IMG/VR virus record: IMGVR_UViG_2884152688_000003
Span: 1 to 64,000 of that record
Source: a virus
Lineage: Duplodnaviria; Caudoviricetes
DNA length: 64,000 nucleotides
Reading direction: 5' to 3' (one strand)
The translations under genes were made by a program, and so were the position numbers. The notes beneath the pieces were generated by a model. It was given only the letters and a program-made list of their open reading frames with translations, was not told the origin of the DNA and searched no databases. The number at the start of each line of letters is the position of its first letter. The first letter of the stretch is position 1. Below are positions 4,035 to 64,000 of the stretch, piece by piece.

Positions 4035-4806
4035 TCTTATTCTCCTTAACCCATAAATTTAATTCTACTTCTTTGTTATTAGGAAACCAATTTTGCCATG
4101 GGTCTCTAACAGAAACATTATCATAGTCATAGTAATCTTTACTTTTTTCTTTTAAAGGTGTTAAAATTAGAGGATGTTTAGCTAAACATACAGTTTTATA
4201 TCTGTGATCATTTAGAAGTAACTTTTTAATCTCTTTTATTTTATCTATCTCAACACCATAACTATATAGTACTCTTGTTATATTTTGATTTTCTCTTTTC
4301 ATTTCTAGTAATTTTTCGTTAGACTCTAAAACTTCTTTTATAATTTCAGTTTGTTCATATCCCTTTAATGTTTTAATCATATACAGTGTATCTAGTTCCG
4401 AAGCTTTAGTAATACTGTTTGATAATCTTACCTCGTCACCTTCAATAATTTCGACATCCAATGTTTCATTATGAAAAACATCAATTGAAATACTTCTATA
4501 TATCTCTTCTTTATCATTATATGAACAGTCTAAATATGTAGGAACATCCCTTTTTATATTTTCATTAAATATTTTTATGGTTTCATTTTTAGAGAGTTTC
4601 CCTCTAAGGTATTTAATCATTAATCCATGTAGTGCATGAATATCTATTAATGAATTTTTATAAATAAATCTCCCATAATCATCATGTTCTCTTAATATCA
4701 ATGGGTTTTGCAAACTTAATATTTTTGCAAAGTTTTTATCTAGTGGCATTTTACAACTTTTCTTTAATTGTCTTCCGTTTGTTAGCAAAAAATTAAAACA
4801 TCCCAT
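4012..4806 (-). CDS. hypothetical protein
   Basis: 264 aa ORF, coupled to neighbours. Confidence 0.7.
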   Translation of the reverse strand: MGCFNFLLTNGRQLKKSCKMPLDKNFAKILSLQNPLILREHDDYGRFIYKNSLIDIHALHGLMIKYLRGKLSKNETIKIFNENIKRDVPTYLDCSYNDKEEIYRSISIDVFHNETLDVEIIEGDEVRLSNSITKASELDTLYMIKTLKGYEQTEIIKEVLESNEKLLEMKRENQNITRVLYSYGVEIDKIKEIKKLLLNDHRYKTVCLAKHPLILTPLKEKSKDYYDYDNVSVRDPWQNWFPNNKEVELNLWVKENKNGTEISN

Positions 4807-37961: not shown

Positions 37962-38600
37962 TTGTTAGTGAAATGTAAAAAAATATTAAATGAACAAAAT
38001 ATATCTATGTTTACTAAAGTGGAAATGAATGTATTTTTTTCATTAATTTATGTGGTTACGGAGAATCCTGAAGTTAATGAAATAGAATTAAAAGCAATTA
38101 AAAAACTATCTAGAGATAGTAAAAATGGTTATAACGATTTAAAAAAACAAATATCTTCAATAAATTCAAAGTTACAGAAAATGACATTCGTAGGGGAAGA
38201 TGGAAAAAAAACTCCGTTTCTATTATTTGAGACTTTACATGTATCCGACAAAGTTTTAGAAGTAAAAATATCCAAGCAGTTTGAGTATTTATTTATTGAT
38301 TTGTTCAATGAAAAAAAATCTATAGCCATATTTGATCTTGAAGAACTTACTATGATAGAAAGTAAATACAGCAAAACTTTATATAGAAAATTAAGTTGTT
38401 TTAAGAGAAGTAAGTGGTTCAAGAAAGAGTTTGATGAATTGGTGACAGAATTAGGATTTAACTCTAAATACAAAAAAAAAGATATAAAGGTAAAATTAAA
38501 AGATGCCATCAAAAAGTTAGATGTATATTTTAGAGATATTTCTATTAGTTATGAGAAAAAAACAATAAGTGGGGAAAATTGTGTAATTAAATGGAAATAA
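37962..38600 (+). CDS. repB: Rep_3 (RepB) family replication initiator
   Basis: FT.VEMNVFFSLI, F.LEEL...ESKYSKTLYR.L; adjacent iterons. Confidence 0.8.
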   Translation: MLVKCKKILNEQNISMFTKVEMNVFFSLIYVVTENPEVNEIELKAIKKLSRDSKNGYNDLKKQISSINSKLQKMTFVGEDGKKTPFLLFETLHVSDKVLEVKISKQFEYLFIDLFNEKKSIAIFDLEELTMIESKYSKTLYRKLSCFKRSKWFKKEFDELVTELGFNSKYKKKDIKVKLKDAIKKLDVYFRDISISYEKKTISGENCVIKWK

Positions 38601-38690
38601 CTGAATATTTTATACAATTGGGAAAAAAGAGGTTTACTTTTCCGGTAGTTAGCATATATATATATAGAGGGGGTAATTAAGTAAATTAAA

Positions 38691-39074
38691 ATGGAAGAAA
38701 ATAAGAGATTATCAAACACAATGTTGACTCTTTACTTAACAGAATTGTTACAAAGAGAATACAATTTAAAATTCAGCGAAAGACAAATGAAAAAAATTCT
38801 GGATGGAATGGAATATGGGATAAAAACTTTAATAGAAGATGGCTATAGTTTTAAGTTATTAGATACCAATTATGAACCATATGTCAAGAAACCAGTTATC
38901 TATAAAGAAATAAGAAGTGGTGAAATTAAAAAGAGTGATGCTCGATTTGACGTTAGAACTTATATGTCTAGAAGTTATAGAAAAGAATTGGGAAAGAAAA
39001 CAAAGCACAAAACCAATGAAGAACCTAGGGTCATAGGCTTATATGAATCTGAAGTTCCGAAAAATTTGAAATAA
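38691..39074 (+). CDS. HU/IHF-like DNA-binding protein (divergent)
   Basis: Helical N-terminus then beta-arm ...IRSGE; position like SPbeta yonN. Confidence 0.5.
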   Translation: MEENKRLSNTMLTLYLTELLQREYNLKFSERQMKKILDGMEYGIKTLIEDGYSFKLLDTNYEPYVKKPVIYKEIRSGEIKKSDARFDVRTYMSRSYRKELGKKTKHKTNEEPRVIGLYESEVPKNLK

Positions 39075-39097
39075 ATAAATATATTTATAAAAAGATA

Positions 39098-39126
39098 TTG
39101 ACATAACAATTAGCTTATGTTATAAT
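39098..39126 (+). promoter_or_regulatory. consensus sigma-A promoter with ACATAA-N8-TTATGT palindrome
   Basis: TTGACA-taacaattagcttatgt-TATAAT. Confidence 0.85.
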
Positions 39127-39318
39127 ATGATTATGTCAAAGAAAGACTTAGCAAACTAGCTAAAAATATAAAGGTGTATTCGCACAGGATTTACTTTTTT
39201 TATTTTTTAACTAATTTGGCAGAAGTCGCCTATCCTCTATAGGTGGATGATGAATGCCTTGTTTTTTTTATTCAAAAAATGTTATAATCAGTCTATATTA
39301 GAAAAGAGTTGATATAAC

Positions 39319-39723
39319 ATGGAATTAGATACAAATAATCATTCAGTATTTCTTCTATATTATCACCTTGTGTTGGTAACTAAATATCGTAGACAGGTGA
39401 TTGATGATGAAATATCTGATTACGCAAAAGCTACTTTTGAAAGAATTTCAGAATCTTATAACATTACTTTAGTTGAGTGGAATCACGATAAAGACCATAT
39501 TCATATTATGTTCAAAGCTCAACCTAAAACAGAAATGACAAAATTCATAAACGCCTACAAGAGTGCTAGTTCACGTTTGATAAAACGGAACTTTCCAAGA
39601 GTTAAACAGTTTCTTTGGAAAGAGATGTTCTGGTCTAAAAGTTTTTGTCTTTTGACAACTGGTGGAGTTCCAATTGATGTGATTAAGAAATACATTCAAA
39701 GTCAAGGAAGTAATCATAAATAG
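39319..39723 (+). CDS. tnpA: Y1 HUH transposase
   Basis: YHLVLVTKYRR, DHIH, KKYIQSQ. Confidence 0.95.
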   Translation: MELDTNNHSVFLLYYHLVLVTKYRRQVIDDEISDYAKATFERISESYNITLVEWNHDKDHIHIMFKAQPKTEMTKFINAYKSASSRLIKRNFPRVKQFLWKEMFWSKSFCLLTTGGVPIDVIKKYIQSQGSNHK

Positions 39724-39730
39724 AAAGTAG

Positions 39731-40882
39731 GTGAACCTCATGAAACAATTAAAAGCATATAAATTCAGAATATCTCCAACAGAAGAACAAGAAATATTCT
39801 TCGCTAAGTCTTTTGGTTGTGTTCGTAAGGTCTACAATCTAATGCTTGATGACCGAATGAAATCTTATGAAGAGACTAAGGATGATACATCTAAAAAAAT
39901 GAAATTTCCAACACCTGCAAAATATAAGAAAGAATTTCCTTTCTTGAAAGAAGTAGATAGCCTTGCTTTAGCAAATGCTCAACTAAATCTAGATAAGGCT
40001 TATAGGAACTTCTTTCGAGATAAATCAATTGGATTTCCTCGTTTCAAAAGCAAAAAAAATCCTGTTCAAAGCTACACAACAAATAATCAAAATGGAACAA
40101 TAACATTGGTTGACGGTAAGTTTATTAAGTTGCCTAAATTAAAGTCATTAGTTAGAATTAAACTGCATAGGCAAATTAAAGGAATTATCAAATCAGCAAC
40201 AATATCACGTCTTGCAAGTGGCAAATACTTTGTGTCTATTCTATGCGAAGAAGATATACAAGAATTGCCAAAGACTAACTCTACTATTGGCATCGACTTA
40301 GGAATATCTCACTTTGCTATACTATCTGACGGTCAAAAGATAGATAACCATAAATTTACTTCTAAGATGGAACAAAAACTTAAACGTGAACAACGCAAAC
40401 TATCCAAACGTTGCCTTATGGCTAAAAAGAAAGGCATTAAACTTTCTGATGCTAAAAACTACCAGAAACAAAAAAATAAAGTAGCTAAGCTACACGAAAA
40501 AGTAATGAACCAACGTGAAGATTTTCTGAACAAGTTAAGTACATCTATTGTCAAAAACCACGATACTATTTGTATAGAAGACTTAAATATCAAAGGAATG
40601 TTACGTAACCATAAATTAGCAAAATCTATATCTGATGTATCATGGTCTAGATTTGTAACTAAATTAGAATACAAAGCCAACTGGTACGGAAGAAAAGTTA
40701 TAAAAGTAGATAAATGGTATCCGTCTAGTCAAATTTGTTCTAACTGTGGACACAATGATGGCAAGAAAGAGTTAACCATAAGAGAATGGACTTGCTCTAA
40801 TTGCAACACGAATCATGATAGAGATATAAATGCAAGTATAAATATAAAAACCGAAGGAATTAGGTTACTAGAAATATCGTAG
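39731..40882 (+). CDS. tnpB: RNA-guided endonuclease TnpB
   Basis: GIDLG, IEDL, Zn finger, DRDINAS; RuvC triad intact. Confidence 0.95.
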
Positions 40883-41112
40883 ATAACATAAAAATCAAAG
40901 ATTTTCGTGTCTAACATATGTGAGAACCATAGGAACTATGGGGATAGCTTGGTAAATAAGAGAAACCTCTGTAAGTAAAGAAATACGCTTACAAGTATGT
41001 TCTGTTCCCAAGAAGCTCCCACTTCTAGCGTTAGCTAAGAGGAGAGTAGTTCACGATGTGGCAAAAAGCTTAAATGCTTTCAAAGGGAGGGGCGTGCTCC
41101 TTCCCCAGATTT

Positions 41113-49588: not shown

Positions 49589-50569
49589 ATGAGTAATGAA
49601 ATTACAGCTTTAGCGTTAGAAATATATGAAGGGAAGAAGACATATTTTACAAATGCTAAAAAAGAAAAAGTTGATGCGAATGAAACATTAAGAGGAATGA
49701 TAATGGAACAATGTGGTGGAAAGTGGAACCACAGAAGTTTTGATTTAGTTAAGCATACATTTTTTGATTTAATAGAAGAGATAGTAACGGTAAGAGGTTC
49801 TGAACTAACTAGAGATCTTTTTTCAAATATAATGACGTTCAAAGATGTTTCTCCAGGACAAAAACCTCAGTTTAGAGTTACTAATCCAGATCTATTTGAG
49901 GTTTCAGTCGTAGCAAATGGAACTATGAACTTCAATAGACAGAGACTATTCGATAGTGTAGTTAATACTACAGCTTTTGACCTAGGGGTAGCAATATATG
50001 ACGATTGGGATTCTTTCATGTTAGGGTTAATAGATTTTAATGAAGCTGTAGACAAAGTAATTAAATCGTTTAATCATAAGATTGCTGAGTTGATAGGGAA
50101 AACGTTTACAGAAGCTTATAACACTTTAAAGAACGGACAGTTCCATGAGGTAGGTCAGTTAGATGAGACAAAACTATTAGAACTTGTTGAAAAGGTTGGT
50201 AACGGTGCTGTAATTTATGGTTCTAAGTTAGCTCTATCAAAAATACCAGGGATACAAGGTTTTGTGACTGATGCAACTGATATCAGAAATGGTGGATACT
50301 TGAGAATGTTCAAGGGTGTAAAGTGTGTTGAACTTGAAAATAGTTATAACAAGGAAAAGGAAAAGTTCGTAATCCCAGATAACATACTATACATAATACC
50401 AGAAGGTGAACATGTGTTATATGGTGGTTTTGAAGGAGACGCATTTGTTTATGATAGAACAAATATAACGGAAAGAATGGATAAGCAGCTAGAATTCTTC
50501 TATACTAGAAGATTCCATCTAGGAGTAGCAGTGGCGAATAGATTTGGTGGTTACGAGATAACAGCTTAA
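49589..50569 (+). CDS. major capsid protein
   Basis: 326 aa, synteny, strong RBS, SPbeta YonB-like pattern. Confidence 0.75.
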   Translation: MSNEITALALEIYEGKKTYFTNAKKEKVDANETLRGMIMEQCGGKWNHRSFDLVKHTFFDLIEEIVTVRGSELTRDLFSNIMTFKDVSPGQKPQFRVTNPDLFEVSVVANGTMNFNRQRLFDSVVNTTAFDLGVAIYDDWDSFMLGLIDFNEAVDKVIKSFNHKIAELIGKTFTEAYNTLKNGQFHEVGQLDETKLLELVEKVGNGAVIYGSKLALSKIPGIQGFVTDATDIRNGGYLRMFKGVKCVELENSYNKEKEKFVIPDNILYIIPEGEHVLYGGFEGDAFVYDRTNITERMDKQLEFFYTRRFHLGVAVANRFGGYEITA

Positions 50570-50623
50570 ACATAGAGGGCACAGATATCTGTGTCCTTTT
50601 TTTTAAACACAAATGGAGGTAAT

Positions 50624-51181
50624 ATGGGAAAGATAATCAGAAAAAACAAAGGTAATAATAATTTAAACGAAATGCAGATCAAACTAAAGTCAACACTAAG
50701 AGAGAGTCAAGATGAAATAAGTGTGGACTTAGTAAATCTAGGTGTAGGGGGAGTTTATTTTAAATGTCCTCTTACGAAAGAAGTATTTATGTGGAATGAA
50801 GGTGGAGATGTAAGAAATGTTCCTTTGAGGATAATATTTTCTATACAGAGTAATGCTAAGTCATTATTAGAAGATCTTCACTTAGGGATAATTGAAGCTT
50901 ACGGTATAGGTTTTGAACTTGAAGATCTTATCTGTGCAATAGGATTAAAAGAATCTTATGAACCATTTAATTTTGACGTAGGAAGTATAGATGACATAAT
51001 AATTGATTCTAATCAAGACGACTTTAGGAAGTTATGCGAAAAGTGTAGCAAAAAAATACTAGAAAGAATTGCAAAGAGATATTTATTTTTAAGAGAAGAA
51101 AATTTAATCAATGAGAGGTCAAAGGAGTTAGACTTAGAGCATTTTTTAGATGAGAGAAATATATTTATTGAGACTATATAA
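50624..51181 (+). CDS. hypothetical virion-associated protein
   Basis: ATG behind GGAGG; synteny. Confidence 0.6.
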   Translation: MGKIIRKNKGNNNLNEMQIKLKSTLRESQDEISVDLVNLGVGGVYFKCPLTKEVFMWNEGGDVRNVPLRIIFSIQSNAKSLLEDLHLGIIEAYGIGFELEDLICAIGLKESYEPFNFDVGSIDDIIIDSNQDDFRKLCEKCSKKILERIAKRYLFLREENLINERSKELDLEHFLDERNIFIETI

Positions 51182-51191
51182 GAGGTATTAG

Positions 51192-51803
51192 ATGACGAAA
51201 ACTGAAGATATTTACGAAATTTTTCTTTCTCAAATTGATGATGAATTATTTGCGATGTTAAGCCCAAATACTATGAGAAAACAATTGCATAATTACCTTG
51301 TTGGTGCGACAGCCAAGTTCAAAAAATGCAAAAAAGATCTTACTATTTTAGATTACAAGAATAAAAAAATAACTATTGACACAGATTTTCTTGACTTTGA
51401 TAAAGACGAAGTTAAAGAGTCTTTTATAAATGTTTTTGGTGAAGAAACAGGAATAGAATATAAAAAAGGAATAGATTGGGTAATGGAAGGTGAAAACAGA
51501 ATCATCTTTGAAATACCCCCACAAGAACCTGTATCAGTAGTGTTTTACAATGATGGATATTTTGAAGATACTTTAAGCAATGAAGAAGTCTTTATATTAG
51601 TAAAAGGGATGATAATCTATTGGTTGCAGCCAAAGGTTAATCGTGAAGAAAATCTAAAGAACATGGTGACAGATGGTGATTATAAAAAGCTATCTGGAGC
51701 TAATATGTTAGATAAAATGATTAAATTATATAAGACTACTTTAAGAGAATTTGAACTTGCTGTTATAAATTATACTTATAATGATTTTAAAGGATTCAAC
51801 TAA
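51192..51803 (+). CDS. putative head-tail adaptor
   Basis: T..EDIYE.FL..I.D, LS.EE..IL...M...W; synteny. Confidence 0.55.
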   Translation: MTKTEDIYEIFLSQIDDELFAMLSPNTMRKQLHNYLVGATAKFKKCKKDLTILDYKNKKITIDTDFLDFDKDEVKESFINVFGEETGIEYKKGIDWVMEGENRIIFEIPPQEPVSVVFYNDGYFEDTLSNEEVFILVKGMIIYWLQPKVNREENLKNMVTDGDYKKLSGANMLDKMIKLYKTTLREFELAVINYTYNDFKGFN

Positions 51804-51804
51804 T

Positions 51805-52806
51805 ATGTCAGATTTTTTAAATGAATATAGATCAAGAGTCGCAAACAAGGCAAAAAACGCAAAAGAAGTTGAAAAAAAAAGGGCTGAACAAGCATTTAAA
51901 TCTTATCTCGATAACACTCCTACTTCTCAAAAAGTACAAATAACAGATGTTGATGAACCATTTATCTCAAAGAAAACTAAGAAGGTTTTAGCCGCAATCA
52001 CAGATGTGACAAATAATGATAAATCTGTTCTTGATGAAAAAAATTTATTTGTAGAGCGAAATGTGAATATGGATGTCGGATGTTATGTTAAATTTGATAA
52101 TCAAACATGGTTAATTATCTTCGAGGAACATCAGCCACTTGGTGTTAAAAAACAATATATAATGAAAAAATGCAATAACTATATTACTTTGAAATATAGA
52201 GGCAATTTAGTTCAGATACCAGTGTCTATAGAAAACTTAACAATGTATTCAGATGGTATAGCTGATGATGTATATATGTCTTATATGGATTCAAAAAAGC
52301 AGATAGGATATGGAAATAACTATATAACAAGAACAATAGGTGAGGGTTTCAGAATCCTATTAACCCATGAAACAGCTTATAAAGTAACCCACATAAATGA
52401 TTTTGAATACAAGGGACTTATAAAATCTTTAGTTCTACAAACACAAATCTTGGTTGGTGATGAAACAGACATCTTCTTAGCTAATAATATTGGTTATTTT
52501 AATAATCTTTCCCCGGAAAAAAGAGTAGAAGAACCCAAAGACATAAAAGGGGAAATACTTGGTGAAAATAAATTGCTTTTAGGTGAAGAATCAGAATTTA
52601 TCTTTGAAACAAAAAACAAAGAACATGAATTTGAATGGATATTAGAAGAAGATTATATTTTTAATATAATAGAAAATAATGGAAACAAGGTTACTGTGGT
52701 GGCGACTACCAACCCAAAATATATAGGTAAAAAAGCAGTCCTAAAAATAAAAGAAAAAAAGACTGAAGAAATAATAGACAAAATAGAACTGATTTTGAGG
52801 GGGTAG
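51805..52806 (+). CDS. putative head closure protein
   Basis: Synteny; G.YV.F...WLI, M.KCN. Confidence 0.5.
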   Translation: MSDFLNEYRSRVANKAKNAKEVEKKRAEQAFKSYLDNTPTSQKVQITDVDEPFISKKTKKVLAAITDVTNNDKSVLDEKNLFVERNVNMDVGCYVKFDNQTWLIIFEEHQPLGVKKQYIMKKCNNYITLKYRGNLVQIPVSIENLTMYSDGIADDVYMSYMDSKKQIGYGNNYITRTIGEGFRILLTHETAYKVTHINDFEYKGLIKSLVLQTQILVGDETDIFLANNIGYFNNLSPEKRVEEPKDIKGEILGENKLLLGEESEFIFETKNKEHEFEWILEEDYIFNIIENNGNKVTVVATTNPKYIGKKAVLKIKEKKTEEIIDKIELILRG

Positions 52807-52810
52807 TAAA

Positions 52811-53335
52811 ATGGCACAAATAGGATATATGAATAGAATGGTAACTGAGGTTTACAATGTTTTAATTCAAGATGATTTAATTTCTAAATTCATGCATTAT
52901 TATAAAGAAAAAGATATAGACATTCCATCTCAACCAAAGGTAAAGAATCCAGTGGGTGCTTTAAAAAAACAGTTTTTTAAAAATAGAAGAATAGAAACTT
53001 TGCAAAGGGATGCGAATGTAAATATAACTATAAATATATCTAGAAAGACAAACTGGCAAGATGGCACATCTAAATGGCATGGAAAGAATTCTTTTGAAAA
53101 TATTCTTGAAATAGGGGTTTCTTGCCACAATGACTGTGACAGAACTTTAAATGGCTCAAGAACATATGCATTAATTGATTTGATAGTTAAAAAGCTATCG
53201 GGAAACTCTATAGATTCTTTAGGTGAAGTTAGGTTCATAGAAACAATAGGAATTAGAGACTTAAATCAAGAATACTCTGGATACCTTACATACTTCAGTG
53301 TATATGGGATGAAAGACGAGGGATTTGATGATTGA
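52811..53335 (+). CDS. putative tail terminator/completion protein
   Basis: Synteny. Confidence 0.45.
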   Translation: MAQIGYMNRMVTEVYNVLIQDDLISKFMHYYKEKDIDIPSQPKVKNPVGALKKQFFKNRRIETLQRDANVNITINISRKTNWQDGTSKWHGKNSFENILEIGVSCHNDCDRTLNGSRTYALIDLIVKKLSGNSIDSLGEVRFIETIGIRDLNQEYSGYLTYFSVYGMKDEGFDD

Positions 53336-54209
53336 GAGTAAATTAATGACTGGACAAGATATAGACTTGTCTCAATATGGATTAGGAGTCATAAAACAGC
53401 CAAGCTTAAAAGAACTATTAGAATTGCCAATCAAAGAATCTGATATAACATCTACTTTCATAATGATTGAAACTTTCTACGAAAAAATGACTGGGTTATC
53501 ACCGAGTGCAGACTTATATAAATTAGATTGTTTGAGTATGGTAAATGAAGCTGTGGCTCAAATGGATTCAGAGGAATACAAAAGAGAAGTCCAAACAAGG
53601 TATAATGATGTATTTTTTAAAAGAGAAATAAGGTACACTTTTTTAGAAAAATTATTCTTGCTACTAAGTTGTTTTTTTGATTGCAATATAAAGGACATAG
53701 ATATCAAAGAAGATCCTTTTGAGGACAGAAAAGATTTCAAGGGAATAGTTATCCTAATAAATAAAGGGGACTCTGAAGATGATAAAATTCTTATAGATAA
53801 AGAAAATTTCAACATACTTTTAAAGGTTATTTTTAAAATATTAGATATAGATATCAAGTCTATACTAAGTAGAACAGAAGAAGATGATGAGTGGGTAGAA
53901 AACAATGGGAGTGCAAAAGAAAGAAAATATATAGAAATATTTAAAAGAAAAGAGCGAGAAAGAAAGAAAAAAGAAGTATTACATATATGTGATTATATCA
54001 ATGTTGTAGTAAATGATTCAGGTAGAGATTATAAAGAAGTAGCCAATTGGACGTATTACCAATTGATTAATACGTTTAAAGCTAGTTTCTTGAAAGATAG
54101 ACATGATATGGATGTTAAGATGTTTACTTCTGGGAATTACAAGATAGATCCAAAGGAAATGTTGGATTGGAAAAAAGAAATTAAGATAAATATAGATGAG
54201 ACAATTTAG
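53325..54209 (+). CDS. structural-module protein (SPbeta YomV-like)
   Basis: IKQPSLKE, WTYYQL; synteny before major tail gene. Confidence 0.55.
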   Translation: MMIESKLMTGQDIDLSQYGLGVIKQPSLKELLELPIKESDITSTFIMIETFYEKMTGLSPSADLYKLDCLSMVNEAVAQMDSEEYKREVQTRYNDVFFKREIRYTFLEKLFLLLSCFFDCNIKDIDIKEDPFEDRKDFKGIVILINKGDSEDDKILIDKENFNILLKVIFKILDIDIKSILSRTEEDDEWVENNGSAKERKYIEIFKRKERERKKKEVLHICDYINVVVNDSGRDYKEVANWTYYQLINTFKASFLKDRHDMDVKMFTSGNYKIDPKEMLDWKKEIKINIDETI

Positions 54210-54256
54210 TCTTGTCTTTTTTTATATAAAAATAATGAAGGATAGGTGATTAATTA

Positions 54257-55066
54257 ATGGCATTCGCAATAAAAGACGCTGCCGATATGGGAGTATTTAA
54301 TAAAGAGACAGGAGTACCGTTGTTTTATACTGAAGCAGCGAACTCTTTTGAGTTAAAAATTGAATCAGAAGAAGTTTTTGCAAAGGCAAAAGGCGTAGAT
54401 ACAATAGGGTTTAACAGTGGTAAAAAAGTAAGTGGGAAAGCGGAGTTTGAAGTTATCCAGTTTCCACAGCTTTCTATAATTCTTGCAAGTGATGTTGCTG
54501 AAAAGAATAATTATGCAGTAGCAAAAAAACTTAAAGCAAAATTGGGAGCCGATAAGAAGGTAATACTAAAAGGAGAGTCTCCTTTAGAGGGTTCTATGAT
54601 GGCTATGCTACTAAAAGATGATGGTGCCGAACTAGGAGAAAAAGTTGAGGTAACTGTTACAAAAGTAGGTGATGATACAGAAGTTGTGTTCCCAGATACT
54701 GTAAAAGAGGGTCAGTTTGTAATACTTTTTTATCAGAATGTAGCACAAAAAGTGAAGGTAATAAAGGTTACTTCAGAAGGAGATACACCAAACCTTAGAA
54801 TTGAAGCAATAGTTTCAGCTAAAATGCAGAATGGTAAAAAGATGGCTTTAAATCTAGTTATAAATAATGCGAGAGCAAAGAATAATGCAGAACTTACATT
54901 CTCTACAGAGAATCCATCTAAGTTCCCAATGGAATTTGACTGTTTCCCAGATGAATTAGGAGAAATTTTTGAATTGACATTTATTGAAGATGATGGAACA
55001 ACAGATTTAGAAGAAAAGGTGAAAAACCTAGATCCTTCTATAAAACTTGATAATGAAGCTGCTTAG
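54257..55066 (+). CDS. major tail (tube) protein
   Basis: FAIKDAAD, NPSKFPMEFDCFPD; followed by terminator. Confidence 0.75.
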   Translation: MAFAIKDAADMGVFNKETGVPLFYTEAANSFELKIESEEVFAKAKGVDTIGFNSGKKVSGKAEFEVIQFPQLSIILASDVAEKNNYAVAKKLKAKLGADKKVILKGESPLEGSMMAMLLKDDGAELGEKVEVTVTKVGDDTEVVFPDTVKEGQFVILFYQNVAQKVKVIKVTSEGDTPNLRIEAIVSAKMQNGKKMALNLVINNARAKNNAELTFSTENPSKFPMEFDCFPDELGEIFELTFIEDDGTTDLEEKVKNLDPSIKLDNEAA

Positions 55067-55075
55067 TATTGATAT

Positions 55076-55105
55076 ACCCCACCAATTGGTGGGGTTATTT
55101 TTTTT
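55076..55105 (+). terminator. intrinsic terminator
   Basis: accccacc-aatt-ggtggggt followed by T run. Confidence 0.85.
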
Positions 55106-55185
55106 AAGTCAATTTAAAATTTTATTTAAATTCAATAAGATTTATTGGCTTTAAATATTTTTTTAAAAGAAAGGAGACAATAAAA

Positions 55186-55962
55186 TTGGTCTTTCATTCG
55201 GACAGATTTATATTCGATGGAGTCAATTCGGAGAGCATAGGGATAATGTTAGTGACTGTCGGTGAAAATGACGTGCTAATGGACTATGGGATTCCATTTG
55301 AATACAAGTTAAAAGTAGAAAGTAGTTTTGGAGATAATCCTTTTTATACCAAAGAGGAGTCTCCACCAGAACCAATCACTTTAGATTTTTGCTTAACAGA
55401 GAATAGACAAGCAATAAAGTGGAGTGATGAGTTGGAAAAAGAAATAATTAACTGGTTAACACAAGATAAATTTTGTGAATTCATTTCTTATGATAATCCA
55501 GAATTAGTTTACTATTTTAGAGCAACAAAGGTTACAAAGAAAATGACACATCAAAAAAAAGGTATTTTATCAGTAACCTTTCAACCATATTACAAACATC
55601 CAGTGAAAAAGATAAGAAAAGATTTGTTGGTCGAGGGAGAAAGATTTACAAATATAAACAATGAGTGTATTTCAAGAGAATATGTATATCCAATGCTAGA
55701 AATTGAGGCAAACGCAAGTGGAAACGTAGAAATTTTAAATGAATCAATAGAAGATTCTGAACCTCTTGTAGTAAAAGGGCTAGAGGACGGAGAAAAAATA
55801 TTTATCGACAATCAACTGTTTATAGTAATAGATGAAAATGATGAAAATAAGTTCCATAAAGTAAACAGACATTGGTTGAAACTAAAAAAGGGAACAAACA
55901 AAATAAAAATCAACGGAAATGTAAATATAAAAATTAAATGTAATTTAGAGATAAAGATATAA
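55186..55962 (+). CDS. distal tail (Dit)-like protein
   Basis: F.FDG..S...GI, II.WL, VYP.LEI, WLKLKKG.N.I. Confidence 0.7.
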   Translation: MVFHSDRFIFDGVNSESIGIMLVTVGENDVLMDYGIPFEYKLKVESSFGDNPFYTKEESPPEPITLDFCLTENRQAIKWSDELEKEIINWLTQDKFCEFISYDNPELVYYFRATKVTKKMTHQKKGILSVTFQPYYKHPVKKIRKDLLVEGERFTNINNECISREYVYPMLEIEANASGNVEILNESIEDSEPLVVKGLEDGEKIFIDNQLFIVIDENDENKFHKVNRHWLKLKKGTNKIKINGNVNIKIKCNLEIKI

Positions 55963-55972
55963 GGAGAAAATT

Positions 55973-56425
55973 ATGAGAACAATAAAATTAAGTGAACTGC
56001 CTAAGAAGGAAAAATATAGAGATATAATTTCGGTTACTATGGATGACGGTGAAATAGATTATATATACGTTTTGAATCCAACAGGCGAAATAGAAAAAGA
56101 ACTTTTAGAGGTATGCTCTGAGGTTATATTTGAAAAATGTGAACTTGACGATTCTGAATTGATGAAATTATTCATAGAAAAACTTACAAATATAGAAGTT
56201 GAATACGGATTTCAGGAAGTTCCAGAGTCCGATGCTTTAGCAAGAGTATATACTACACTAAAAACTATTTACTTTGAAATGATAGATTTTTGCTACAGAT
56301 TTTATATTTGCGAAGAATCAGCAATGAAGGCAGAAGAAAGTAGAGAAAAATTATTAAAAGAAATCAGTGCGAAAGAAGAAAAAGAAGATAAAGAAATTAT
56401 AAACGCCATAAAAGAAGATAAATAG
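55973..56425 (+). CDS. hypothetical protein (possible tail chaperone)
   Basis: Acidic ORF upstream of tape measure. Confidence 0.5.
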   Translation: MRTIKLSELPKKEKYRDIISVTMDDGEIDYIYVLNPTGEIEKELLEVCSEVIFEKCELDDSELMKLFIEKLTNIEVEYGFQEVPESDALARVYTTLKTIYFEMIDFCYRFYICEESAMKAEESREKLLKEISAKEEKEDKEIINAIKEDK

Positions 56426-56440
56426 TTATGAGGTGAAAAT

Positions 56441-56754
56441 ATGGTCTTTGGATCGATTGAAGAGTGTGAAGCTTATATAAAGAGTTGTATGACACAAACA
56501 ACCCCAGTTATGGCACAAAAAACTCAAGAAGAAGGAAAGAACATAATATCCGGACAGGTTGGTGGAATAACAGGAAGTTTGGCAAATTCAGTGTTTATAT
56601 TGGGAACATCAGCAAATTCAATGGAGGTAGGAATAGAGGATAGAGGTGGTGGAAATGATTATTCATGGACATCACAGGTTTATAGAACTCATTTCTTTCC
56701 GATGTACGGATTAGAGAAAGGCCACACATGGAATAGAGGTGCCACAACAATTAT
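56441..56754 (+). CDS. HK97 gp10-like tail protein, exon 1
   Basis: TGSLANS, GLEKG; joins in frame to 58910..58994 after IStron removal (132 aa). Confidence 0.7.
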
Positions 56755-57299
56755 AGGTTTTTCAAGCGAGAAAACCCACGATTTTAATCGTGTGGATGAA
56801 AGCTTGTCAAATACACTGTAAGCATATAGAGAAATCTGTATGTAGTGAATACATAAAACTCATGTATTCCAATTAAGAAACTGAATTGCTGGAAATTCGT
56901 AAAGCTAACTTAACTACAACGCAAAGATAATACAAAACTTAAACGTGAATGTGGCGAGAGCAGAAAAAATAAGTTAGATGGCATAAGGTTAAACCCTAAG
57001 TGCTTTAAAATTGAAAATCAGCATCCAAGCCTAGAAATAGGAAGGTTCAACGACTATTCCTCTTGAGGGAAGTACATCACAAGCCATTGGTGATGGAAGT
57101 GGTTTCGCCTTAGCACGTAATGGTGAAGGATAAGATATAGTCTGTGCTTGCACGAAAGTGTAAGAAGTTCATAAGAGAACTGTATAGATAGTAGCGAATC
57201 TATATGAACAAACTTCACACAAAAAAAAGAAAGTATAATAGTTTTAATATTGTGTATAAAACTATTGATTTCGTACACTAAATAGCATATAATAAAATT

Positions 57300-57701
57300 A
57301 TGAATAATGAATACAGAGACTCAAAAACAACTGTTTCGTTAATCAATTATCATTTTGTTTTTTGTCCAAGATATCGAAGGAAAATATTTGAAGATTCCAA
57401 AGTAGATATTAGATTTAAATCAGTCATTCAAGAAATATGTATTGAGAATGATTGGGATATTATTGCAATAGAGACAGATAAAGAGCATTGCCATTTATTC
57501 ATAAATGTACAACCTATATATTCTCCTTCTGAAATAATGAAGATAATAAAAGGTATTACATCACGAAAATTAAGGCAAGAATTTGAACATTTAAGCAAAA
57601 TGCCAAGTGTTTGGACAAGGTCATTTTTTGTTTCAACTGCTGGTGATGTATCTAGTAAAATAATTAAAAGATATGTTGAAAATCAAAGAACAAGATACTG
57701 A
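57300..57701 (+). CDS. tnpA: Y1 HUH transposase
   Basis: YHFVFCPRYRR, EHCH, KRYVENQ. Confidence 0.95.
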   Translation: MNNEYRDSKTTVSLINYHFVFCPRYRRKIFEDSKVDIRFKSVIQEICIENDWDIIAIETDKEHCHLFINVQPIYSPSEIMKIIKGITSRKLRQEFEHLSKMPSVWTRSFFVSTAGDVSSKIIKRYVENQRTRY

Positions 57702-57716
57702 TTATACGTTAAGGAG

Positions 57717-58844
57717 GTGACAGAAATGAAAAAGGCACATAAGATACGTATTTACCCAAATACTAAACAACAGATACAATTTCAAAAAACATTTGGATGC
57801 GTAAGATTTTACTGGAATTTTATTTTAAACCAAACTCAAACAAATTATAAAATGAAACAAGAAGATGAAATGTATTTAGAAGACAAGACAACATATGCAA
57901 TTCTTAAAAAACAAGAAGAATATTCATGGTTAAAAGAAGTTGAAGCTCAACCATTAAGCCAAGTGACTATGGATTTAAGAAAAGCATACAAAAATACATT
58001 TAAATCTAAGTTTGGGCTCCCTAAATTCAAGAGTAAAAAATACTCTAAAAAATCTTATAGGACAGCAGCTGGAATGAAGGTGAATGAAAACTACTGTTAT
58101 ATATCTAGAGTTGGGTGGGTAAAAATGGCGGAGAAGTTACGATTTAAAGGAAAATTAATGAATGTAACAATCAGTCAATCTAAATCTGGAAAATACTTTG
58201 CAGCATTCTTAGTAGAAACTGAAAATGTTGAACTAGAACCAGTCGAAAATAAAATTGGCTTAGATTTAGGTCTTTCTCATTTCTGTGTAGCTTCCACAGG
58301 AGAAAAAATAGATAACAAAAAATTCTATCATTCTCTTGAAAAGCGACTAATAATTGAACAAAGAAAACTTTCAAAACGTTTAGAGATAGCCAAAAAACAT
58401 AATCGTAAATTAGATGATTGTAAAAACTATCAAAAACAAAAAAAGAAAGTTGCTTTAATACATGAAAAGATATTCAATCAAAGAAATAATTTTTTACATC
58501 AAATTTCTTCAAGAATAACTGATGAAAACCAAGTCATTTGTATAGAAGATTTAAACGTAAAAAACATGATTAAAGATCATAAATTAGCGAAATCAATAGC
58601 CGATGTATCGTGGAGTGAATTCGTAAGACAATTAGAGTACAAGTCTAAATGGAAAGGAAGAAAACTTGTTAAGGTAGATAGATTCTTCCCTAGTTCTCAA
58701 ATTTGTTCTAAATGTGGACACAATGATGGCAAGAAAGAGTTAACCATAAGAGAATGGACTTGTTCTAATTGCAACACGAATCACGATAGAGATATCAATG
58801 CGAGCATAAATATTAAAACCGAAGGACTTTCGGGGTTAGCTTAG
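57717..58844 (+). CDS. tnpB: RNA-guided endonuclease TnpB
   Basis: GLDLG, IEDL, Zn finger, DRDINAS. Confidence 0.95.
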
Positions 58845-58909
58845 TAAATTTACTATCAATAGATGGTATTACCTAAGAACCCCACGATTTTAATCGTGTG
58901 GAGTGTCAG

Positions 58910-58994
58910 GATTACATGGGAATCATGGGCTTCTGGAAACTTAGATAAGATATTCTTAGAAACAATGAGTGGTCTAGGAGTACCTATAGGATAA
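58910..58994 (+). CDS. HK97 gp10-like tail protein, exon 2
   Basis: (M)ITWESWASGNLDKIFLETMSGLGVPIG*, stop abuts the tape-measure RBS. Confidence 0.7.
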
Positions 58995-59009
58995 GGAAGG
59001 AGTGATTTT

Positions 59010-61169
59010 TTGGCTGAGTTTAGAATAAAAAGTACATTAGATCTCAGTACAGATGAAGCAAAGAGCAAAATGAAAGCTCTTGAAAATGAAAAGATTAAAG
59101 CTAAATTAGAACTAGATGCCGAAAGTAGTAAGAAAGCCCTTAACAGTTTAGATAAAGCGTCAAAGCAATCTCAACAGAATAGGGTCAAAGATGCAAAGAA
59201 GGCAGAAAATGAATTAGCTGGGATAGATAGAAAAAAGCTAAATGAATATAAAAGATTAGGGCAGGAAAAAGCTTCTTTAAGTAATAAGTTTGCTAAAGCT
59301 GAAAGCGATAATGCTAGAAAGAATTTAGATAAAAATATTAGAGATAGACAACGACAGATGTCTGGACTATACAAACAAATGTCTAGTGAACAGCAAAAAA
59401 TAGCAAAACAGATGGACACTCAAATGTTCGGTGCTAAATCAGGCAATGGCTTACTGAAGGCATTTGGACGAATAGATAAAGATGCTTTAAAGATAAAAAA
59501 TACTATCAGAAGTCTAGATGGGGATATAACTAAAACCTTAGGGAATAAGCTATCTAAACAAATGGATGGATTTTATAAAGGATTAGATAAAAAACCTGTC
59601 AATAACGCTACGTATGAAAACGCTAGAAGGACGATGAATAGTTATCAACAAAGTGCTAAAGCTTTGAAAGAAATTTCCTCTCTAGAAAAATCATATGGAA
59701 GTAGACAAACGGCTGTAAACAATAGACTGGGTGGTTTAAGTAATCTAGTAACGCAAAAAGCTGGGGCTGAACTAAATAAAAATTTAAGCCAATCTTTTTC
59801 ACAAATTAGAGGAAAAGATATAACTTCAACAGCTAGTAAAATGAAAGTTTTTGGAACTGAATTAAACAGGACAGCTACAGCAAGTAAACAATTACAAGGA
59901 TTAGATAAGACAATAAATAGATTGTCTGGATTAGAAAGTGGTTTAAAACCTAAAACTATTAATGGTCTTAGACAAGGGATAGTCGATTTATCTAAATCAC
60001 CTTCATTAGGAACAGCAAGTTTTGATTCCGAATTAAAAAAAGTAAATACGCAAATGACAGTAGCGAGCCGATATCAAGGCCGAATGGCAAAACTTAAAGA
60101 TGATTTTAAGATGTCCATGTTCGGAACCTCAATGGGATATTTGGCTGGCTCTTTTTTACGTTCTCAAGTAACTGGAGCAATCCAAACTTTTAAAGATTTA
60201 GATGCTTCAATGACAGATATAAAGAAGGTAGCAAATCCTAGAGATGTAGCGACAGAATCTCAAACAAAAGCTATTAGAAAACAAGCTATCCAAATAGCGA
60301 AAGATGTTGGGATGGCTTCATCTGATGTCCAATCATCAATAGCTACAGCATTACAATCTGGTATGGGCGGTATGAAAGAGTCTATGGCAGTTGCAAGAAA
60401 ATCTATGATATTAGCTAACGTTGGTGATATGGATAAAGTTGAGGCAACAAAAGCTGTCAATACCATAGTTAAATCTTTCAACTTAGACCCTTTAGGGAAA
60501 CAAAGAGTTAACGTAAAGGGAATGTCAAAAGAAACAACACAATTAGCTAATGCAATGGACTTGCTTAACTATGCAGGTAATAATTATGCTATATCTTCAG
60601 CAGGTGTAGCCGAGGCATTACAGCGTGGTGGTGGAGTTATGAAAGCATATGGAATGAACTTAGCCGATTCTGTTGCAATGATTACAGCCACAAATGAACC
60701 AATACAGAATCCAGAAAAAGTTGGTAATGGTTTAAAATCTATTGCTATTAATATGGCTGGTATTACAACCAGTGCCAAAGATGGGACACTCCATGCGAAT
60801 AAAACAGCTAAGGCACTTCAAGAAATTGCTGGCGTTGATATATATAAAGATAAGGCAAAAGGATCTCTTAAATCCCAAGTTGAACTTTTAGATGAAGTTC
60901 AGAAAAAATGGGGTGGATTAAACGATGCTCAAAGAGCCGGTCTATCTGAGTCTATAGCAGGTAAACATAGAGCGGATATATTCCAAGCTTTAATGGGGAA
61001 TTACGAAACATTTAAGAAACTTCGTAATGAGTTTAGCCAAGGAGACCACTTTGGTTCAGCTGAAGCCGAAAACGAAAAATATGTAAACTCATTAGCTGGT
61101 AAGACAAACAAGCTAAAAGAGACCATGACTTCCATAGGAACTGGTCTTATAAATGGGAAGGCTGTTTAT
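59010..61169 (+). CDS. tape measure protein, exon 1
   Basis: TP901-like TMP domain (LDASMTDIKKV, GNNYAIS, VGNGLKSI). Confidence 0.9.
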
Positions 61170-63064
61170 TAGGAACGTAGTGATATAAACGAGAATCCTC
61201 GTGATTTTAATCATGAGATGAATCGTAAAATAGATACGTAAATAGTAAGCATATAGAGAAATCTGTATGTAGAGGTGAGAGAAATTCATCCAATACTACT
61301 TGAATTGCTGGAAACCCCTAAAGCTAGTAAAACTACAACATAGAGATGAAATATACTCAAGTGTGAATGTTGCGAAAGCAGAAAAAAATTACTAGATAAC
61401 ATAAGGTTAAATCCTAAGTGTTCTACAATAATGGGCAATCAGCAGGTAAGCTCCGAATAGGAGAAACTTCAACGACTATTCCTCTTGAGGGAAGTACACA
61501 CAAGCGTGTGGAAGTGGGTAGACCTTAACACGTAATGGTGAAGGATAAGATATAGTCTGTGCTTGCACGAAAGTGTAAGAAGTTCATAAGAGAACTGTAT
61601 AGATAGTAGCGAATCTATATGAACGAGACCTCAAAAATGATAAAGTACAAGGTTCAAGGCATTAGTCCAGAAAACTTTTACAAAAATATGGGCTTATTCA
61701 GTAAAATGCGGTACAATTGCCTTATAGAAAAGAGGTGAGAAAATGTATTTAACTGTAAAGCAACAAGTAAAACAATTATCTAAGGAAGACTATAAAAATA
61801 TAAGAGAACTATCTCATGTAGCTAAAAACTTAGCAAATGAAGCTATATATAATATTCGTCAGTATTATTTTCAAGAAGGAGAATATTTGAACTACGAAAA
61901 AAATTATGTATTACTAAAAGATAGTGAAAACTATAAAAAACTAAATTCTAATATGGCACAACAAATATTAAAAGAAGTAGATGGTTCTTTTAAGTCCTTT
62001 TTCAGTCTTATTAAATTAGCTAAGAAAGGAAAGTATTCATTTAGAAATATTAAATTGCCAAAATATCTTCCAAAAGATGGATTTACGACACTTATTATAG
62101 GATTTGTTAGATTAAAGGGAAATCTTTTAACTATACCATATTCTAATCAATTTAAAAAAGAACATTCAACTGTTACTATAAAAATCCCACAAATTCTTTT
62201 AGATAAAAAGATAAAGGAGATAAGAATTATACCTAAAGCTAAAGCTAGGTTCTTTGAGATTCAATATACTTATGAAGTTGAGAAAGAACAAAGAAATTTA
62301 GACAAAAACAAAGCACTAGCAATAGATTTAGGAATTAATAATTTAGCTACTTGTGTGGTATCAACAGGTGAATCCTTCATAGTTGATGGGAGAAGGTTAA
62401 AATCTATAAATCAAGGATATAATAAGCAAAATGCAATATTACAAAGCATTAAAGATAATCAAAAATATGGGAAAAGACCTACAAATAGACAATATAGAAT
62501 TGCTGAAAAAAGAAATAATAAAGTCAATGATTATATGTCTAAAACAGCAAGGATAATAATTAATTATTGCCTTAAAAATAATATTGGAAAAATAGTTTGT
62601 GGGTATAATGAAACATTTCAAAGAAACAGTAAACTTGGCAGAATAAACAATCAAAACTTTACAAATATACCATTTGGTAAACTAAGAGAAAAGTTGGAGT
62701 ATCTATGTGAATTATATGGTATAGAGTTTAAAAAACAAGAAGAAAGTTATACTTCTAAAGCAAGTTTCTTTGATAATGATGAAATCCCAACATATAACAA
62801 TGATAATCCAAAAGAATATGTATTCTCTGGCAAAAGAGTAAAAAGAGGATTGTATAAAACAAAAAAAGGATTAATCTTAAATGCAGATGTAAATGGAGCG
62901 TTAAACATATTAAAGAAAAGTAACGTTGTACCCTTAGAAGGGTTATACACTAGAGGCGAACTGGACACGCCAATACGTATCAAAGTAGTTTAAGCTATGG
63001 AGAACGTAAATAGGTTTAATTAATAAACCTTAGAACCCTGTGATTTTAATCATAGGAGGTTCAG
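61170..63064 (+). mobile_element. IStron 2 (group I intron plus tnpB only, non-autonomous)
   Basis: TTAT| ... TCAG| ends, gtgattttaatcat hairpins, intron core shared with IStron 1. Confidence 0.9.
61743..62993 (+). CDS. tnpB: TnpB of the rearranged-RuvC clade
   Basis: AIDLG; IVCGYN (Gly at canonical Glu); QEESYTS; NADVNGA. Confidence 0.9.
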   Translation: MYLTVKQQVKQLSKEDYKNIRELSHVAKNLANEAIYNIRQYYFQEGEYLNYEKNYVLLKDSENYKKLNSNMAQQILKEVDGSFKSFFSLIKLAKKGKYSFRNIKLPKYLPKDGFTTLIIGFVRLKGNLLTIPYSNQFKKEHSTVTIKIPQILLDKKIKEIRIIPKAKARFFEIQYTYEVEKEQRNLDKNKALAIDLGINNLATCVVSTGESFIVDGRRLKSINQGYNKQNAILQSIKDNQKYGKRPTNRQYRIAEKRNNKVNDYMSKTARIIINYCLKNNIGKIVCGYNETFQRNSKLGRINNQNFTNIPFGKLREKLEYLCELYGIEFKKQEESYTSKASFFDNDEIPTYNNDNPKEYVFSGKRVKRGLYKTKKGLILNADVNGALNILKKSNVVPLEGLYTRGELDTPIRIKVV

Positions 63065-64000
63065 GGTGGGTTAGATGCTCTTAATGCTTTTGCTGGAGGT
63101 TTAGATAAATTAGTAGGTTTTGCAGAAAAATATAATCTTCAACTACCTGTTATGGCATCAGGGCTAGGGATGTTAAAAAGTTCATTTAATGGGTTTAAGA
63201 CACCTATAAAAACGTGGGAAGAATTACTTGGGAACGATACTCCTAAGAAACATTCTAAAGCTACAAACAAACCGAAAATAACAGCAGATTCTTTCTCTAA
63301 ACCTAGAGATATAAAAGAACAAACAAATGCAGTAAATACATTGACTAAAGCTAATGATAAAAATACTCAATCTATAAGATCTAATGTCAAGGCAAGTGAA
63401 AGAACACCAGAACAAGCAAAAGCTGTTAGAAAAGAATTAGCATCTCAATTTAAGACTGTTGATTCATTAGGTAAAGCAAAAGAGAAAGATTTAGATATAA
63501 CTAAAAAAGGGATTTCAGCTAATATTAAGGCAGCCGAAAGTGCTAAACAACACAGAAAAGGGATATCTGGACAAGTCCAAGAACTTAAGTCTTTAAATAA
63601 AGTTAGTTCACAATCGTCCAAAATAGGTATAGGAGATAAAATCAGTGGAGTAACAAAAGGAATAGGTGGGGTAGCTAAAAATCTATTATCTGGTGTTGGA
63701 GGAATGTTAGCAACAGGTGCTTTATATGGTGGAGCTACTTTAGCTATATCTAAAGGATTAGAATATGGGTATAAAGGATACCAAAAGTTAACTAATGGTG
63801 TGAACATGTCTAGGCAAGCCCACATAGATAGAAGAAATGCCTTAGTAGGTGAGAACAAAGCTATTTCTTCAAATATAAACTTTTTACAAAACAATAAAAA
63901 AGAATATGATTCTTTAAGAAATAAACAAAAGCAGTTATCAAACACGCCATATGAGAATATGTCAGAATCGCAAAAGGCTGATATGGACAAATTAAAGGCA
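63065..64000 (+). CDS. tape measure protein, exon 2 (runs off window)
   Basis: Frame GGLDALNAFAGGLDKLV... open to the edge; continues ...GKAVY. Confidence 0.85.

Follow-up and report, generated by a model that had tools for sequence, protein, structure and literature searches.

The tape measure gene of a prophage in the virus record IMGVR_UViG_2884152688_000003 (Duplodnaviria; Caudoviricetes), whose positions 1 to 64,000 form the 64-kb window analysed here, is split by an element which, judged by its sequence traits, is a complete, non-autonomous group A (IS200/IS605-family) IStron, a chimera of a group I intron and an insertion sequence (IS). The removal of the element restores a single long tape measure frame. 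The element encodes a TnpB nuclease with a rearranged RuvC-II site and no TnpA transposase. The account as a whole, in which the element is removed from the transcript by predicted group I splicing, its rearranged TnpB works with an omega-RNA, and a TnpA acts in trans, is considered quite probable. The coordinates of the features are collected in Table 1.

The reading frame of exon 1 (59010..61172) runs to ...GKAVY and then meets the stop codon TAG at 61170-61172, so that the unspliced frame stops at once (TAT|TAG), as the original prediction had stated. The frame restarts at 63065 with GGT GGG TTA GAT GCT CTT (GGLDAL), directly abutting ...GGTTCAG. Deleting precisely 1895 nt (61170-63064) fuses the 720 and 2036 codons into a tape measure protein of 2756 aa, which is colinear with its uninterrupted homologues and without gaps. 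The junction is given to the residue by blastp: exon-1 residue 720 and exon-2 residue 1 correspond to residues 1108/1109 of P0015 and 800/801 of P0007, and ...SSKAVYGVIDGINGMAEGLDKAV of P0015 stands opposite NGKAVY|GGLDALNAFAGGLDKLV of the window. P0001 and P0008 agree with this junction, with exon 1 aligned to 714/707 and 719/712 and exon 2 from 714. The borders were placed at 61169|61170 and 63064|63065 because of the conserved Tyr-Gly at the joint, the U as last exon base and the G as last intron base. Hence, the earlier proposals of an IStron occupying 61170..63064 and of a TCAG|GGT joining that restores ...GKAVY-GGLDAL both agree with the homologues, the former to the exact base. The tape measure homologues amount to 367 proteins at E <= 0.001, the full-length ones measuring 2650-3290 aa, and the best are 67-69% identical across tape measure residues 400-720. 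Exon 1 carries the PhageMin_Tail domain at its residues 423-651 (Pfam, E = 3e-23), exon 2 is similar to the homologues up to its final residue, and the tail genes adjoining the tape measure gene are intact.

Table 1. Features of the interrupted tape measure gene, of the IStron within it, and of the two other IS elements in the window
Feature	Position	Strand	Remarks
Tape measure gene, exon 1	59010..61169	+	720 codons; open reading frame (ORF) list, Pfam, PHROG tape measure families, blastp to full-length homologues
TTTAT, target and presumed target-adjacent motif (TAM), also 5'-exon strand of intron P1	61165..61169	+	Last U would pair with G61245
IStron	61170..63064	+	1895 nt; predicted single group I intron; starts UAGG..., ends ...UCAG
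Left-end subterminal hairpin	61198..61217	+	CTCGTGAT-TTTA-ATCATGAG, then GATGAAT; within the P1 loop; direct-repeat families D3/D4
Internal guide sequence UAGUAAGC	61243..61250	+	Would pair with exon GUUUAU and intron UA, giving a U-G wobble at the 5' cut
Group I intron core P2-P9	61245..61579	+	Rfam RF00028, 69.5 bits vs gathering score 50, E = 1.6e-17, model 1-253/253
TGAACGA motif and 5' strand of closing helix	61620..61632	+	TGAACGA (61620-61626) ends the ribozyme part; GACCUC at 61627-61632
tnpB	61743..62993	+	416 aa; D195, G287, E333/E334, D382 in NADVN
Stem-loop 1 of 3' untranslated part	63013..63029	+	GGTTTA-ATTAA-TAAACC
Right-end hairpin	63033..63062	+	GAACCCTGTGAT-TTTA-ATCATAGGAGGTTC; RNAfold -12.2 kcal/mol
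GAGGUU, 3' strand of closing helix	63056..63061	+	Predicted to pair with 61627-61632
Intron terminal G	63064	+	3' splice site and last right-end base; TTCAG in 16/16 intron-bearing relatives
Tape measure gene, exon 2	63065..64000, continuing past the window to C12:69175	+	2036 codons open
Plain IS200/IS605 element	39200-41054		TnpA match 39343-39705; canonical TnpB 39758-40849; no group I intron
First IStron	56755..58909	+	After ATTAT (56750-56754), ends GTCAG; TnpA 57300-57701; canonical TnpB 57717-58844

The insertion site has an empty counterpart in the related phage contig L136, which reads AAATTAGTTTAT|GGTGCATTAGATGG, i.e. GTTTAT|GGTG. The flank on the 3' side of the element, GGTGG, is unlike the TTTAT target, and so no target duplication is present. 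A candidate for the same insertion in the same-genus genome G002 was rejected: the TnpB relative there belongs to a plain element at another site, and the tape measure homologue of G002 is uninterrupted and has no TTTAT at the corresponding site.

If no splicing took place, the gene might be expressed as two separate polypeptides, one of 720 aa and another restarted within exon 2. Such an arrangement would suit the PHROG families that start or end near internal positions of the protein (phrog_13137, of 541 positions, on residues 25-568; phrog_21411 and phrog_10871, both starting at residue 582) and the many database homologues that are N-terminal fragments. It is nevertheless very improbable, as the first ATG of the exon-2 frame lies 29 codons in, at 63152, and no Shine-Dalgarno-like sequence is found ahead of it. 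Moreover, the N-terminal fragments encoded elsewhere (P0124-P0137, on contigs of 88-127 kb) end at the conserved motifs at residue 656 (AIAGK) or 696 (SAEAE) and continue into unrelated tails, as unannotated introns would have it, and the tape measure gene of L136 is split at residue 523/524 by a free group I intron of 298 nt (4373-4670). Group I introns have also been described at three positions of the tape measure gene in prophages of the Bacillus cereus group (PMC2504315). The tape measure gene is not a very unusual host of introns and IStrons. A literature search found no paper on an IStron in a tape measure gene, with the reservation that supplementary tables might list one. One viral contig of 55 kb carries both an IStron (L106) and the free tape measure intron of L136.

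A gene interrupted by a spliced element, the reading preferred here, calls for a ribozyme, and the 5' part of the element matches the group I intron model over its full length. The P1 helix, in which GUUUAU of the exon pairs with UAGUAAGC, would set the 5' cut at the U-G wobble. Directly ahead of P2, a AUAGUAAGC motif is shared by this element and 13 of the 16 intron-bearing relatives described below, and the first IStron of the window has CUGUAAGC there. The intron remained unseen in a 14-kb Rfam scan (50000-64000), and the same model found it when given 701 bases. Likewise, an Rfam scan of 20 loci (115 kb) at gathering scores was uninformative, as it missed the positive controls L125, L017 and L118. 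The speed filters of Rfam lose such IStron ribozymes in long stretches (14 kb, 115 kb) and not in 701 bases. The intron calls in the relatives rest on nhmmer. No third group I intron was found by Rfam on 38500-39400 or by nhmmer over the whole genome.

The sequence traits of group A IStrons compared here are all present: the intron lies 5', ORF B follows GAACGA, the target is TTTAT, the exon ends in U, the right end is TCAG, and both hairpins and a helix of 6 bp are found. Published descriptions of group A list the targets TTGAT, ATTAT and TTTAT, a TCAG 3' end, a 5' exon ending in U, an IS part that begins after GAACGA, a short helix (6-10 bp) enclosing the ORF region and a frequent loss of ORF A; the GAACGA motif is described for all IStrons (PMC4227781). 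The IS605-type hairpins proposed earlier are in place at both ends (61198-61217 and 63033-63062). The stretch of 71 nt on the 3' side of tnpB consists of stem-loop 1 and the right-end hairpin, and ends with TCAG (63061-63064). The right-end hairpin would serve as the TnpA recognition hairpin in DNA and is presumed to form the terminal stem-loop of the omega-RNA in RNA. The lack of tnpA within the element, also noted before, holds in the ORF list: tnpB is the only ORF of >=100 aa within 61170-63064, and the Y1 TnpA matches of the genome lie elsewhere (39343, 57330). An assignment to the IS607 type or group B was rejected, as there is no ORF for a serine TnpA, the insertion follows TTTAT, and the 3' terminus reads TCAG rather than CGG; the NCBIfam IS607_TnpB model gives 18.3 bits on the TnpB of the element vs a cut-off of 350. 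Terminator-like sites number 2 vs 2.4 expected, that is, without excess. The family's near-universal motif of the 3' untranslated part, CAAACTTCTTAAAT, is replaced by GAGAACGTAAATAG at 62998-63012 in this element and in its closest relative, L013, and ACGTAAATAG is found also at 61236-61245, adjoining the internal guide sequence.

The tnpB product matches OrfB_IS605 (1.2e-29) and Cas12f1-like_TNB (1.7e-10) in Pfam and scores 191.4 bits with the NCBIfam guided_TnpB model (NF040570) vs a cut-off of 100. It was aligned with 40 relatives of 62-79% identity, plus one at 38%. The residues D195, G287 (IVCGYNE), E333 and E334 (QEESYTS), S335-S338, N380, D382 (NADVN) and N384 are invariant in 40/40 of them. 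The profile of this alignment, compared with solved structures, places G287 on the Glu of IQMERL in Cas12f (9nzo) and QEESYTS on DPYHTSQ. In the AlphaFold2 model (predicted local distance difference test 87.7), G287 and E333 each stand at the end of a strand (281-288 and 328-333), and the model is matched over its whole length by AsCas12f (6.6e-19), ISFba1 TnpB (1.9e-14), ISDra2 TnpB (4.6e-14) and Fanzor2 (8.1e-10) in Foldseek, where E for the matches to the first three spans 1e-19 to 1e-11. No zinc-finger cysteines occur between residues 338 and 380. E290 of GYNE was rejected as the displaced catalytic Glu, for it varies among the relatives (V, Q, K, P, R).

By these alignments the TnpB is a member of the published RuvC-II-rearranged class, in which Gly or Pro replaces the canonical Glu and an alternative, conserved Glu is found some 45 residues downstream (PMC10530073); here E333/E334 follow G287 by 46-47 residues. 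The Gly at the canonical RuvC-II position and the shifted Glu of EESYTS, both pointed out in the original prediction, are thus invariant features of the family. The same class includes the 'TnpB2' protein TvTnpB, the RIIr groups and the Fanzors, with a RuvC-III motif NADXN, which NADVN of this TnpB matches, as the mark of a 'derived' clade and several Glu-to-Gly branches described by Altae-Tran et al. (PMC10530073; PMC10691335). RIIr-5 keeps the zinc finger according to its description (PMC10691335), and the lack of one here speaks against RIIr-5. The position of such a TnpB, of a clade taken to be usually linked to IS607/Fanzor relatives, between IS605-type ends had been considered an anomaly, which it is not: TvTnpB, an active rearranged TnpB, belongs to an IS605 element with an IS605 TnpA (PMC10530073), and the whole family studied here has IS605-type ends.

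The TnpB is most likely an intact and active nuclease with D195, E333 or E334, and D382 as its catalytic residues. It might alternatively be no DNA nuclease, acting as an RNA-binding regulator of splicing or being an inactive passenger. This is quite unlikely. It would fit the repression of splicing by TnpB binding reported for an IS607 IStron (bioRxiv 10.1101/2023.11.20.567912) and the missing zinc finger and canonical RuvC-II Glu. However, D195, E333/E334 and D382 are conserved without exception in the 40 relatives, which come from many bacterial families, rearranged TnpBs and Fanzors are reported to cut DNA, with the alternative Glu needed for cleavage in a Fanzor (PMC10530073), and the loss of the zinc finger is described in large TnpB branches (PMC10691335).

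The relatives of this TnpB place the element in a wider family. They are encoded at 122 loci, of which 42 lie on viral contigs and the other 80 in genomes, and come from many Firmicute families and Fusobacterium. A group I intron lies upstream at 16 loci, 6 of which are from the viral collection. The right end consists of a hairpin followed by TTCAC or TTCAG in 108/122 relatives. It reads TTCAC at 92 loci, all without an intron, and TTCAG at all 16 loci with an intron, so that no intron-bearing locus ends in C; since the loci are kin, this association is not a statistical test. A further five loci without an intron were scored as TTCAG, of which L117, L119 and L120 are real and L116 and L134 are artefacts of the search pattern, and nine more, also intron-less, fall outside both classes, six of them at contig ends and the others reading TTCTC (L030), TTCAT (L031) and TTCAA (L122). 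The three real intron-less loci ending in G are near relatives of the IStrons, and two of them, L119 and L120, lie about 5 kb apart on one viral contig of 203 kb. At their left ends, 11/16 intron-bearing relatives have TTTAT, two have GTTAT and one has AATAT; one shows only TTAT in view and the remaining one is not readable. Similarly, in 6/13 close pairs of intron-less relatives, the similarity starts exactly at TTTAT and continues with the hairpin and GATGAAT. A Y1 TnpA adjoins only 2/122 loci, by weak matches on the opposite strand. Across these loci, IS605-type ends combined with a missing tnpA are the rule for this TnpB family and no oddity of one copy. In a quick maximum-likelihood tree of 115 proteins (L031, L075, L084, L086, L102, L128, L130 and L134 were dropped as partial or broken), the intron label requires 7 changes, >=3 of which are imposed by branches with good support.

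The 3' end of the element would serve both the intron and the guide RNA. The closing helix between GACCUC (61627-61632) and GAGGUU (63056-63061), which ends three bases ahead of the 3' splice site, has an RNAduplex energy of -8.8 kcal/mol vs -4.6 +/- 2.3 for shuffles and would loop out the tnpB part, bringing G63064 to the ribozyme core. It is predicted in 17/18 elements, the exception being L028, a record containing Ns, and is changed on both sides in L021 (AAUCUC/GAGAUU) and L129 (ACUUC/GAAGU). The outer stem of the right-end hairpin uses 63058-63062, of which 4 nt (63058-63061) are common with the closing helix; this hairpin is predicted in 18/18 IStron ends with differing stem sequences. 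Stem-loop 1 has 6 predicted pairs, each of which is changed on both sides and still paired in 9-14/40 sequences, and it is probably part of the guide-RNA scaffold; RNAalifold on the 40 right ends resolved stem-loop 1 only, and MAFFT aligned the variable right-end hairpin poorly. By analogy with published TnpB systems, the guide of the omega-RNA would be the first ~16-20 nt of exon 2. As the hairpin and the intron helix share these 4 nt, a given transcript should be able either to splice or to form the guide, but not both. A competition between splicing and omega-RNA in this element, resting on this overlap, is therefore plausible. In an IS607 IStron, the omega-RNA structure and TnpB binding repress splicing, and the same has been suggested for IS605 IStrons (bioRxiv 10.1101/2023.11.20.567912); the terminal bases have been described as a point of convergence of IStron functions (PMC13521648).

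The window holds a possible source of transposase. Among the 29 contigs of the genome (2.15 Mb), only this one shows matches to Y1 TnpA, two in number (39343, 57330), or to TnpB, of which there are three. The first IStron, located 2.3 kb upstream of the second in a neighbouring tail gene, shares with it the TTAT-type target and the TCAG end. In addition, GATTTTAATC occurs 4 times in the 64-kb window and only in the four end hairpins of both IStrons, vs 0.84 expected, and 2 of 100 shuffles reach 4. Movement of the second IStron would need a Y1 TnpA in trans, and the TnpA at 57300, which belongs to an element with the same hairpin core and TCAG end, is reasonably the likeliest candidate. The introns of the two IStrons are 80% identical overall and include blocks of 116 nt at 96% (57094-57209 vs 61509-61624) and 28 nt at 100% (56818-56845 vs 61245-61272), and their TnpBs belong to different lineages. 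The ribozyme modules look like products of recombination or gene conversion.

Taken through its proposed steps, the element would be spliced from the transcript so that TAT is joined to GGT and the 2756-aa protein is made, and a transcript left unspliced would stop at TAG. Since translation stops there without splicing, the tail assembly of the prophage should depend on splicing, and a dependence of virion production on splicing, as proposed earlier, is plausible. TnpB with the omega-RNA from the 3' end of the transcript would cut tape measure alleles in which TTTAT directly precedes the first bases of exon 2, and repair from the copy bearing the element would restore or spread it, as published work on IS605 and IS607 elements suggests.

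Several observations weigh against this account. Self-splicing with exact exon joining is a prediction from the sequence, its exactness drawn from the colinearity with the homologues, and the P1 pairing was read by eye. The energies of the closing helices beat those of shuffles modestly, by about 0.4 to 3.8 standard deviations. A consensus scan of the + strand found no promoter for tnpB directly upstream of it. Over the first 20 bases of the presumed guide, the empty site in L136 has 5 mismatches, including 2 at positions 5-6, and would probably escape cutting, which leaves no known natural target. The element occurs in a single copy, with no further copies in the genome, and no near-identical phage without the insertion was found in the phage collection or among the homologues. 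A single-sequence alignment to AsCas12f shifts the RuvC-II position by a few residues, and the RuvC-II region is unreliable in the hhalign comparison (74% probability) with the first IStron's canonical TnpB, which leaves the assignment of the RuvC-II column with some uncertainty.

An alternative is a dead insertion, i.e. a defective prophage in which the ribozyme splices inefficiently and the tape measure gene is broken. Besides the predicted nature of the splicing and the single copy, this would be in line with the copies of CdiIStron, which are reported to vary widely in splicing efficiency despite conserved introns (bioRxiv 10.1101/2023.11.20.567912). A dead insertion is unlikely, however, because the intron spans the whole Rfam model with a score beyond the gathering cut-off, it retains its P1 partner, terminal G and closing helix, and the 720- and 2036-codon exons are open, with exon 2 similar to its end and the neighbouring tail genes intact.

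The functional IStron favoured here has the layout, ends, target class, helix and ORF A loss of the known group A IStrons, for example CdISt1 of Clostridioides difficile, FnISt1/2 and EfISt1 (Tourasse et al. 2014, PMC4227781). Its ORF B product is a rearranged TnpB without a zinc finger, a type that some of the listed elements may share (e.g. FnISt2, with an ORF B nearest to ISSoc6). The host gene here is a prophage tape measure gene, which goes unmentioned in the available text of that paper; similarly, introns go unmentioned for rearranged TnpBs in the available text of PMC10691335. The IS607-type CboIStron of Clostridium botulinum (Zedaveinyte et al., bioRxiv 10.1101/2023.11.20.567912; Mortman and Sternberg 2026, PMC13521648) resembles the arrangement proposed here in that intron, tnpB mRNA and omega-RNA are all provided by a single transcript, and the 3' splice site is the right end. 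Its TnpA is a serine recombinase, its target TGGG and its end CGG, and its 5' exon ends in G, whereas the element in the window is IS605-type with TTTAT and TCAG, lacks a TnpA and follows an exon ending in U. The antagonism between guide-RNA structure and splicing is experimental in CboIStron and proposed here, and the terminal bases would be multiply constrained in both. The introns TMP-IVS1/2/3 (Tourasse and Kolsto 2008, PMC2504315) are self-splicing introns that occupy alternative positions within the conserved region of the tape measure gene in prophages, but they are plain introns of another host lineage, whereas the present element is a transposon chimera.

In an IStron, one sequence must serve a transposase, a guide-RNA nuclease and a ribozyme, and the only dissection of this trade-off so far concerns an IS607-type element studied with reporter plasmids. 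With a rearranged-TnpB IStron of the IS605 type in a gene required for the tail, the yield of phage would naturally report how splicing and guide formation are balanced. Readable right ends, available for 108 relatives (92 C, 16 G), offer a comparative set for changes from plain IS to intron. A more far-reaching reading, speculative and rather unlikely, is that ribozyme and nuclease are exchangeable modules, with one ribozyme-hairpin module found with two unrelated TnpB lineages and >=3 changes of intron state accompanied by the C/G switch of the last base, and that an IStron in an essential tail gene is an RNA-guided homing drive and maybe a weapon against co-infecting phages with the uninterrupted allele. 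This anti-phage role would resemble that of intron-borne homing endonucleases. As regards annotation, the tape measure 'fragments' of large Firmicute phages would often be exons, and long Rfam scans can miss such introns.

The host of the prophage is probably Peptostreptococcus: the closest named tape measure fragment is from P. anaerobius, and the left end of the G002 element reads like a P. anaerobius record. A megablast search of the phage collection gave no close relative and 3 short matches only, which fall in the intron, cover 6-8% of the query and are 82-85% identical to it. The plain IS element of the window ends in ...AGTAGTTCAC, the final TTCAC (41050-41054) being that of the intron-less elements whose TnpBs are related to the TnpB of the second IStron. 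If the exons of the first IStron were joined, the product would have 132 aa and belong to PHROG family 11057 (140 positions, of which 1-102 are matched by exon 1), and its P1 would use UUAU|AG with CUGUAA.

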